Part shown: in pieces, positions 22,170 through 22,865 of the stretch
Numbering within the stretch: the first letter of the stretch is position 1
Layout: every line of letters starts with the position of its first letter
Source: a virus
Virus record (IMG/VR): IMGVR_UViG_3300035491_000271
Location: 820 to 64,819 of that record
Length of the DNA: 64,000 nucleotides
Direction: 5' to 3' (one strand)
The notes under the pieces: model-generated
Database searches by the model: none
Seen by the model: only the letters and a program-made list of their open reading frames with translations
Told to the model about the DNA's origin: nothing
Translations under genes and position numbers: made by a program

Positions 22170-22865
22170 TTATAGGCGGGGAGTTCTCGGTAGCCTGTCT
22201 TAAGTGCCGACGGGGAAGGCACGACAGGAACGGGTGTAGATGGGCCCTCTACCGGACCTCCCCTGTTCTGGACGTTGTGGACGGGAACCGAAACCCGTTC
22301 TTCCTCAGCAGTGCTTTCACCACTATGCGGGCGGCTAACTCAGATGCATTGTCCAAGTAACCTTGCTGAGGCGTTCGTACGTAAACTACCACAACGAACT
22401 GGGTTGGGGAATTGCCCAGTAACGCTCACGTCACCCTAGACGACTACTTGACTGTCAGGGCGTGGACACCAGGTACAATTCCCCAAACTGGGAGGAAGGG
22501 TCGGGGCTTAGGCAGTGATACCTGGGGGGAGGGTTCCTTGCCGGGCTGCTGAAGGCCCTGCAACTCACTACCCTTACCCCGACCCTTCCAAACAGAGCGG
22601 GAGAGTCGTCCGACTGGTCAAGGGGACCAATCCAGCACCAGTCATCCGACCGCCGTGACGAAATCGGTGGACGACCCTCCCTAACTGAGACAAGTAGTCG
22701 GAGTCGAACCGACTGGATACGATGTATCCACAGCTACCACCCTTCCTGACCCGATGCCGACAATATGGCTCCAGGAAGCTAAGGCCGAATCTCACGGCGA
22801 GCACGGTTAAGCTGTACTTGAATTTGAAGCGATTACCGTGACGGCACACGACCGGTAATCGAAAC
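22170..22865 (-). ncRNA. Candidate large, highly structured ncRNA of unknown family
   Basis: ORF-poor intergenic region with at least ten helices of 6-25 bp. G-U pairs form only on the minus strand. Includes a TTCGACT T-loop hairpin. See findings. Confidence 0.75.

Follow-up and report, generated by a model that had tools for sequence, protein, structure and literature searches.

A tRNA-shaped, nondecoding RNA cassette with a hypervariable triloop in the tRNA island of a jumbo phage clade

It is increasingly recognized that the tRNA islands of phages also contain RNAs other than tRNAs, among them GOLLD, ROOL, and Y-RNA-like molecules. GOLLD is a large, ornate phage RNA located near tRNA islands, sometimes with tRNAs in its linker (bioRxiv 10.1101/2024.12.08.627333). 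The YrlA RNA of Mycobacterium smegmatis is cleaved by RNase P and receives CCA; no YrlA other than one with a 7-bp stem served as a substrate of this enzyme (Chen et al. 2014, PMC4201824). tRNA-like elements in longer transcripts include the mascRNA of MALAT1 and the tRNA-miRNA transcripts of murine gammaherpesvirus 68 (PMC8457004, PMC4337559). Here we analyze a tRNA-like element of 130 nucleotides (nt), module B, on the minus strand of a 64,000-nt stretch of DNA (the window; positions 820 to 64,819 of IMG/VR record IMGVR_UViG_3300035491_000271). The window belongs to a 91.6-kb IMG/VR fragment from a jumbo phage with a size of approximately 254 kb. Module B lies near the 5' end of a 728-nt structured RNA between an ATPase-like gene and a PF21825 gene. 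We think it fairly likely that the module is a tRNA-derived, tRNA-shaped, nondecoding cassette, which is excised by tRNA-processing enzymes and then acts as a tRNA mimic.

According to the original prediction, four helices (P1 to P4) meet here with zero unpaired junction bases, P4 is a canonical T arm, P1 stacked on P4 mimics the acceptor/T domain of a tRNA, and the 3' end is not CCA. When the minus strand was reread, the strings and coordinates of all four helices were correct (Table 1). P4 is indeed a canonical T arm with a stem that covaries in homologues, and the module ends in a trailer reading UCUCA. The absence of unpaired junction bases holds for the window-type copies but not for the more distant ones: CCUUU stands between P2 and P3 in L027 and L036, and L033 has linkers of 1 to 2 nt (L and G numbers designate loci and records of related phages). 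Contiguity of P3, P4, and P1 is general among homologues, and the P1-P2 and P2-P3 linkers range from 0 to 5 nt.

Together, P1 and P4 provide 11 stacked pairs which, with the canonical T-loop and a conserved U at position -1, reproduce the acceptor/T limb of a tRNA. P3 adjoins the T arm on its 5' side, as does the long variable arm of class II tRNAs, and its 17 nt correspond to the length of an anticodon arm. In its minimum free energy structure, the isolated module folds into the four-way junction; at the branch point, a register shifted by one step is an alternative. In the ensemble of the full-length RNA, P2, P3, and P4 form with probabilities of 0.9 to 1.0.

Homologues were detected with a covariance model, R1, which was built from four window-type sequences using the originally predicted helices and three interior helices. 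Full-module matches were obtained for the window-type copies in L012, L013, and L016 (approximately 180 bits), for L033 (81 bits), L036 (61 bits), and L027 (59 bits), and partial matches for truncated copies in L055 (67 bits) and L074 (42 bits). In total, R1 located the module in seven distinct sequences and in two truncated copies. R1 also matched true tRNAs weakly, at 14 to 24 bits. In a nine-sequence alignment fitted to R1, standard pairs occupied 93.9% of the cells, compared to 73.7 ± 1.4% in shuffles. Both sides had changed in 24 of the 37 pairs (compared to 11.5 ± 2.0 in shuffles and no more than 11 in slid controls), and the covariation score was 0.513, compared to ≤0.134 with partners slid by 1 to 3 columns.

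Compensatory changes were present in all four helices and also in P2b, a hairpin inside the P2 domain. P1 reads CAAGUA/UACUUG in the window, CAAGUG/CRCUUG in L027 and L036, and (G)UAGAUG/CGUCUG(C) in L033, and the corresponding P4 variants are GUCGG/CCGAC in the window, GGUGG/CCACC in L027, and GCUGG/CCAGC in L033. P2 occurs as CAGCU/AGCUG, AUYG/UGAU, and GAAC/GUUC, and P2b as CUUCCUG/CAGGAAG, CUUCCAG/CUGGGAG, CCUCCAG/CUGGAGG, and CUUCUGU/ACAGAAG. Furthermore, the G-U pairs of the module are compatible with the minus strand only. The interior of P2 (AACCGUG..CCGUGNGAUUCGGNCUUAGC, followed by P2b and GGUG) hardly varies, even where P1, P3, and P4 are fully changed in distant homologues. This near-invariance suggests a sequence-specific function beyond that of a processing signal.

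Among six close relatives, 5 of the 130 module columns varied, compared to 32 of 672 across the RNA region analyzed, and this low level of change indicates that the module is under purifying selection. The same data speak to the idea of a decaying tRNA pseudogene without a function of its own. Such a relic would be expected where relatives have tRNA genes and would have no anticodon loop, D arm, or CCA, all of which is the case here. However, the module is more conserved than the flanking RNA, compensatory changes in distant lineages preserve all of its helices, and its most conserved part is the P2 interior, which is not tRNA-like. We therefore consider a pseudogene very unlikely.

The useful anchor was the baseplate-like gene at 25131-26732, which has many relatives and led to loci with the same layout. 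The ATPase-like gene upstream of the RNA led to few relatives, on short contigs that lacked the RNA, and its alignment retrieved nothing from metagenomes. A 16-base motif scan of metagenomes yielded 51 matches, mostly due to chance; L033, L036, L045, L055/L066, and L074 are homologues, and L061 is a doubtful, weak match. When genome contigs were scanned on both strands with the P2 motif, the 4 matches obtained were at chance level, and thus the motif has no exact match or complement to an abundant bacterial host RNA. A blastn search of phage GenBank entries with a 751-nt region as the query gave no match, and an exact-pattern scan of IMG/VR for the P3 plus T-arm sequence found nothing.

The relatives share a layout with a large noncoding gap ahead of the PF21825 gene; the nearest named one is Pseudomonas phage pPa_SNUABM_DT01 (66% identity over the baseplate-like protein). 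Alignment and nhmmer revealed a nearly unchanged module in the 94% relatives L012 and L016 and in the 80% relative L013. In the 74% relatives L014/L017 and the 70% relative L026, the surrounding RNA is kept but lacks exactly the module; the borders of the deletion lie immediately ahead of P1 and right behind it. A divergent copy is located between tRNA-Asn and tRNA-Thr in L027, and in L033, L036, and L045 the order is module, domain Z (the conserved 3' core of the large RNA), and tRNA-Thr. In L027/L045, L033, and L036, the module stands alone with domain Z between tRNA-Asn and tRNA-Thr, and in L027, L033, and L036 domain Z follows it directly. Related phages that lack the module harbor ordinary tRNA clusters (Tyr, Asp, Gln, Asn, Ser, and His) in the same neighborhood. 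We conclude that, in this clade of jumbo phages, the module forms an autonomous tRNA-island cassette. Together with the covariation, this cassette behavior and the tRNA-island position in related phages strengthen the original proposal of an acceptor/T-domain mimic that is not a canonical tRNA.

The true tRNA sets at this locus (L018 to L022, L015, L027, L033, and L036) have mostly GUN anticodons (Tyr, Asp, Asn, and His), in addition to Gln, Ser, and Thr. In the related loci, all true tRNAs encode CCA, with the exception of tRNA-His in L021/L022.

The distribution of the module also bears on a rival explanation, according to which it is a permanently attached subdomain of a GOLLD/ROOL-type ornate RNA and is not excised, its T-loop and junction serving as tertiary or quaternary building blocks or as a covalently displayed tRNA-like cargo, comparable to the tRNAs of the GOLLD linker. 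The surrounding RNA survives without the module in L014/L017 and L026, and the module survives with domain Z alone in L027, L033, and L036, and therefore it is dispensable for the core fold of the large RNA. In addition, a terminal helix closes each domain of this RNA individually, and similar YCYCAGUUW linkers lie between the domains, which resembles an array of separate products; the Rfam GOLLD and ROOL models do not match. Permanent attachment would nevertheless agree with the location of the module inside a 728-nt region with a z score of -5.4, a conserved 3' core, and a variable 5' part, and with the combination of a phage tRNA island and embedded tRNA-like inserts, as in the GOLLD setting. 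It would also agree with the lack of a promoter or terminator consensus between the domains; a scan of the minus strand for sigma-70 promoters and intrinsic terminators gave nothing useful, and jumbo phages may use their own polymerases. All in all, we regard an attached subdomain as possible but rather unlikely.

As anticipated in the original prediction, ARAGORN found 0 tRNA or transfer-messenger RNA (tmRNA) genes over the whole window. Rfam 15 gave nothing at the gathering score over the window, and at E ≤ 10 over positions 21500 to 23500 the only match was a partial tRNA-Sec (20.9 bits; E = 0.48), in which P3 aligned to the variable arm and P4 to the T arm. The tRNA model RF00005 had no match in the window or in G000. 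Of the tRNA hallmarks, a T arm with a 5-bp stem and a 7-nt loop of the UUCRANY type is present. There is no D stem-loop in the module, the sole 7-nt loop that could be compared to an anticodon loop (UGNGAUU) has G at the U33 position, and instead of a 7-bp acceptor stem with a discriminator base and CCA there is a 6-bp stem followed by UCUCA. With neither a 7-nt loop containing U33 nor a D arm nor CCA, the module is nondecoding.

A functional decoding tRNA of unusual form, for example a suppressor or a class II tRNA with expansions, is extremely unlikely in our judgment. It would account for the canonical T arm and the acceptor-like stem, and P3 has exactly the 17 nt of an anticodon arm with a variable central triplet. 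Yet C-G and A-U pairs close the P3 loop to a triloop that has no U33, and the linker nucleotides 8, 9, and 26 are missing together with the D arm and the variable loop. CCA is absent, although nearly all true tRNAs of the clade encode it, and both ARAGORN and RF00005 were negative. Moreover, the triplets AUC and AUU would be A34 anticodons. To our knowledge, A34 anticodons in bacteria are restricted to Arg.

The original prediction further proposed that a 10-nt string downstream of the module competes with the junction, either in a strand displacement switch or in a multimerization contact. The string, its coordinates, and its complementarity to the module were correct, but the match is not significant, and it is not retained along with the module. 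In 5.7% of the shuffled downstream sequences, one or another 10-mer of the module had a 10-nt complement. Among module carriers, the perfect complement was found only in the window, L012, and L016. The L013 module differs from that of the window at two loop positions and has identical P1 and P4 helices, but downstream of it complementarity extends over at most 7 nt; for L027, L036, and L033, the maximum is 5 to 6 nt. In L026, CUGACAGCCAAGUAGUCGUC is kept in the apical hairpin of H3, a domain of the large RNA, and neither an R1 match nor the target string was detected anywhere in the 164-kb record or the locus.

For a switch or a multimerization contact, CAAGUAGUCG would have to invade P1/P4 and thereby toggle the junction or link two molecules. 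Its position, mostly in the H3 apical loop (5 of the 10 bases), would make it sterically available, and the complement is perfect in three sequences. In the full-length ensemble, however, the alternative duplex had a probability of 0.01, compared to 0.9 for P4, and a comparable match was present in 5.7% of the shuffles. In a conformational switch, both pairings should be conserved or covary; here, the junction is conserved and the competitor is not. Since the competitor is missing from four module lineages and present in one lineage without the module, the outcome that the original prediction had named as speaking against it applies to the competitor, whereas it does not apply to the junction. 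We consider this mechanism highly improbable. The complement is probably due to chance, and it may allow an occasional loop-strand contact in the lineage of the window. This case also illustrates that a striking long-range complement in one sequence can be dismissed with few homologues.

The P3 triloop was compared in six close sequences, namely those of the window, L012, L016, and contigs of three sequencing runs from other studies; the runs, represented by Logan contigs, were the source of the allele information. The five variable module columns are 22792 (the N of the P2d loop UGNGAUU), 22760 (in the P2b loop), and 22721 to 22723, which form the triloop. Position 22723 alone among the 672 columns has three or more alleles, with all four bases represented. 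The triloop reads AUC in the window, L004, X3, and X4; GCU in L012; CCU in L016 and X8; UCU in X10; and AUU in L013. In more distant copies, it reads AUA, AUU, or AUCU. Because independent assemblies agree on the alleles, they are not assembly errors. Palindrome-mediated inversion of the loop was rejected as their source, as the alleles are not reverse complements of one another. No partner site covarying with the triloop was seen, and the variable N of UGNGAUU showed no correlation with it. We conclude that the triloop is either the sole truly unconstrained, mutation-prone spot or under diversifying selection. At 22792, the third base of the P2d loop, A, C, or U is present across phages, and the remaining loop and the stem are invariant.

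The original prediction also named a tRNA-mimic decoy. The cassette behavior and the hypervariable triloop make the module compatible with a decoy role against tRNA-directed defense. As a counter-defense RNA, it would titrate or block a host immune protein that targets tRNAs, for example an anticodon nuclease or a protein active on the acceptor end. The P2 domain would then give affinity. The triloop, which occupies the site of the anticodon or long variable arm in a tRNA and whose first position shows all four bases in near-identical phages, would be the interface of an arms race, and the gain and loss of the cassette and its replacement of tRNA genes in phages that lack tRNAs would reflect the evolution of an accessory anti-defense element. 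We put this forward tentatively and regard it as unlikely.

A second insert in the same large RNA, module A, was found in L012:9640-9725, L016:9290-9368, and L026:9750-9824. It has a near-canonical acceptor stem, an Asp-like D arm, and a T arm, and RF00005 matches it at 41 to 42 bits. What remains of the anticodon arm is a 4-bp stem with a GUA or UGCG loop, and the 3' terminus reads ACCC. Module A is the only RF00005 match in G001, a 254-kb close relative that is 96% complete, which means that this lineage has tRNA look-alikes but no tRNAs.

A relationship of module B to tRNAs is indicated by the weak R1 matches to tRNAs, by the tRNA clusters at the same place in relatives, and by the presence of module A in the same RNA. 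The module is probably cut out by tRNA-processing enzymes. In the favored reading, the locus would be transcribed as a single long precursor, which would be cut at the module by host tRNA-processing enzymes: RNase P, recruited by the acceptor/T limb, would make the cut 5' of P1, and the UCUCA trailer would be processed by an endonuclease or exonuclease. Cutting would release a stable RNA of approximately 130 nt and set the ends of the neighboring domains, and each stem-closed domain may be a separate product, as in tRNA clusters. The released RNA could then act as a tRNA mimic, with the branched P2 domain of approximately 80 nt standing in for the D and anticodon arms and P3 in the position of the anticodon arm or of a long variable arm. 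The conserved P2 domain would bind a putative partner, and the P3 triloop may be a fast-evolving contact point. The 10-nt complement at 22441-22450 would play no part in this mechanism.

Several points weigh against excision and mimicry. The thermodynamics are weak, with z scores of -2.0 (window), -1.1 (L027), and 0 (L033) for the isolated module, and it is thus the evolutionary support that places the junction beyond chance. P1, the helix at which cleavage would occur, had a probability of approximately 0.27 in the full-length ensemble. The covariation alignment was fitted to R1, with the rows of L055 and L074 partly forced, and the complete module is present in three independent sequence types only (the window type, the L027/L036 type, and L033). 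The acceptor-like stem has 6 bp and not 7, whereas the YrlA that is cut by RNase P has a 7-bp stem (PMC4201824). Finally, CCA is not encoded, and no CCA-adding enzyme was found in the five related records G000 to G004. In the same records, no T4-type RNA ligase 1 was found in a search run without a positive control.

The domains of the 728-nt RNA follow each other in the order 5' hairpin, module B, H1, H2, H3, middle domain, and domain Z, and the downstream domains are each closed by their own helix of the GGGRAG/CUYCCC type. A YCYCAGUUW linker, in the variants UCUCAGUUA, CUCUGUUU, UCCCAGUUU, and ACCCAGUU, is located ahead of each stem-closed domain. This linker may represent a common processing site or a relic of tandem duplication. 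Domain Z is the most widespread part of the locus. It is characterized by the motifs GGGGAG..GUAGAGGG..UCUA..CCCGUC..CCCCRCCUAU and by a closing helix of 6 to 7 bp that is followed by RCCU, and it is positioned directly upstream of a gene start or of tRNA-Thr. Besides L015, which is from the cultured phage pPa_SNUABM_DT01, the loci with domain Z include L018:10424-10517, L019, L021, L023, L024, L027, L033, and L036. No Rfam match was found for domain Z.

Table 1. Features of the structured RNA and of module B (window positions)
Feature	Position	Strand	Basis or remarks
Whole structured intergenic RNA, 728 nt, free of open reading frames	22154..22881	minus	z = -5.4; homologous regions upstream of the same PF21825 gene in L012, L013, L014, and L016
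Module B, P1-closed four-way junction, 130 nt	22691..22820	minus	Sequence, minimum free energy structure of the isolated module, R1 matches in relatives, covariation
P1, acceptor-like, 5' strand CAAGUA, partner UACUUG	22815..22820, 22691-22696	minus	6 of 6 pairs change on both sides among homologues
P2 domain	22731..22814	minus	Stalk CAGCU/AGCUG (22810-14/22731-35) plus ACC/GGU; stalk and P2b covary
P2d hairpin, GCCG-UGAGAUU-CGGC	22784-22798	minus	Inside the P2 domain
P2b hairpin	22742-22778	minus	Inside the P2 domain
P3 hairpin, UGGAUAC-AUC-GUAUCCA, 7 bp and 3-nt loop	22714..22730	minus	7 of 7 pairs covary
P3 triloop, hypervariable, AUC in the window	22721..22723	minus	Allele comparison
P4, T arm GUCGG-UUCGACU-CCGAC, 5-bp stem and T-loop UUCGACU	22697..22713	minus	Sequence; stem covaries, loop stays UUYGACU
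3' trailer UCUCA, no encoded CCA	22686..22690	minus	Same in window-type, L027, and L036 copies; CCA there in L033
Competitor CAAGUAGUCG	22441..22450	minus	Apical hairpin of H3; complementary to 22691-22700
H1	22599-22681	minus	Own closing helix
H2	22494-22589	minus	Own closing helix
H3, closed hairpin domain GGGGAAUUG...CAAUUCCCC, contains the competitor	22406..22484	minus	Fold; closing helix covaries with L026 (GGGUAACCCGG/CCGGGUUACCC)
YCYCAGUUW linkers	22682-22690, 22590-22598, 22485-22493, 22398-22405	minus	Sequence
Domain Z, conserved 3' core of approximately 100 nt	22166..22267	minus	12 loci, including pPa_SNUABM_DT01 (L015:11561-11656)

The ATPase-like gene directly upstream of the RNA (22882-23400, minus strand) encodes 172 amino acids. 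It is missing at this locus in L012, L013, L014, and L016, where the space holds the 5' part of the RNA with extra hairpins and module A. Due to this absence, the gene looks like a lineage-specific insertion and not like a gene that is conserved as a partner of this RNA. In other jumbo phages, distant homologues of the gene are located inside tRNA clusters (L007 and L008).

Two further RNA elements were observed in related phages. A distant relative, the 265-kb ENA contig L003, carries a different tRNA-like element of approximately 140 nt (L003:6163-6306). Its acceptor stem has 7 bp, its D arm is canonical, and it further comprises three extra hairpins (one with a CCU triloop) as well as a T arm and an encoded ACCA. 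This element opens a 657-nt structured gap (z = -5.6), and it was missed by ARAGORN and R1. In L074:1400-1530, a hammerhead-like core, CUGAUGAG-stem-CGAAAC, lies beside the truncated copy of the P2 core. It has a long stem III insertion and a GUC site before the stem I partner, and no Rfam call was made for it at E ≤ 1.

Compared to tRNAs (RF00005), and in particular to class II tRNAs (Ser, Leu, Tyr, and Sec), the module has a similar acceptor-like stem contiguous with a 5-bp T stem, a T-loop of the UUCGAYU type, a hairpin immediately 5' of the T arm, and a U at position -1. The location in a phage tRNA island and the cross-matches of R1 to tRNAs are further similarities. In contrast to these tRNAs, it has no D arm, 7-nt anticodon loop, or encoded CCA, its acceptor stem has 6 bp, a conserved branched domain of approximately 80 nt replaces the D and anticodon arms, and ARAGORN and RF00005 are negative. 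tmRNA also combines an acceptor stem and a T arm without a decoding anticodon arm, in the place of whose stem it has a long helix. The module differs from it by an extra P3 hairpin and by the lack of CCA and of a tag reading frame and pseudoknots between the P2 strands, where the approximately 75 nt contain no frame ending in a stop; ARAGORN and the Rfam tmRNA models were negative.

In transcripts of the mascRNA and gammaherpesvirus 68 type, tRNA-processing enzymes (nuclear RNase P and RNase Z) use the tRNA-like fold to define RNA ends. The phage locus resembles them in having a tRNA-like fold within a putative longer noncoding transcript, with long hairpins after it. Those are, however, eukaryotic or animal-virus systems without homology to the module, for which processing is inferred. 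YrlA is likewise a nondecoding RNA that keeps a T arm and an acceptor-like stem, and its family is found in phages (PMC4201824). YrlA differs from the module by its D arm and by its Ro-binding helix, which contains a GNCGAAN0-1G motif, and its neighboring gene is rsr (Ro60/TROVE). No GNCGAA motif was seen in the module, and no TROVE/Ro60 gene (PF05731) was found in G000 and four related records (G001 to G004), three of which are at least 96% complete.

The RNA that hosts the module is large, phage encoded, and predicted to be elaborately folded, and it lies beside or replaces a tRNA island, as is the case for GOLLD and ROOL. The conserved 3' core, the variable 5' part, and the embedded tRNA-type elements are also shared with these RNAs. 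However, there was no match to their models, which we take to be RF01998 (GOLLD) and RF03087 (ROOL), at the gathering score in the window or even at E ≤ 10 over 21500-23500, and the embedded element is a nondecoding mimic and not a real tRNA. With its 130 nt, the module is experimentally tractable, for example with respect to RNase P processing, protein partners, and tRNA-directed defense. In summary, it is best filed with the nondecoding tRNA mimics of phage tRNA/RNA islands, among which it is a compact and clearly delimited example: an acceptor/T limb fused to a conserved non-tRNA domain, with a single hypervariable 3-nt loop.

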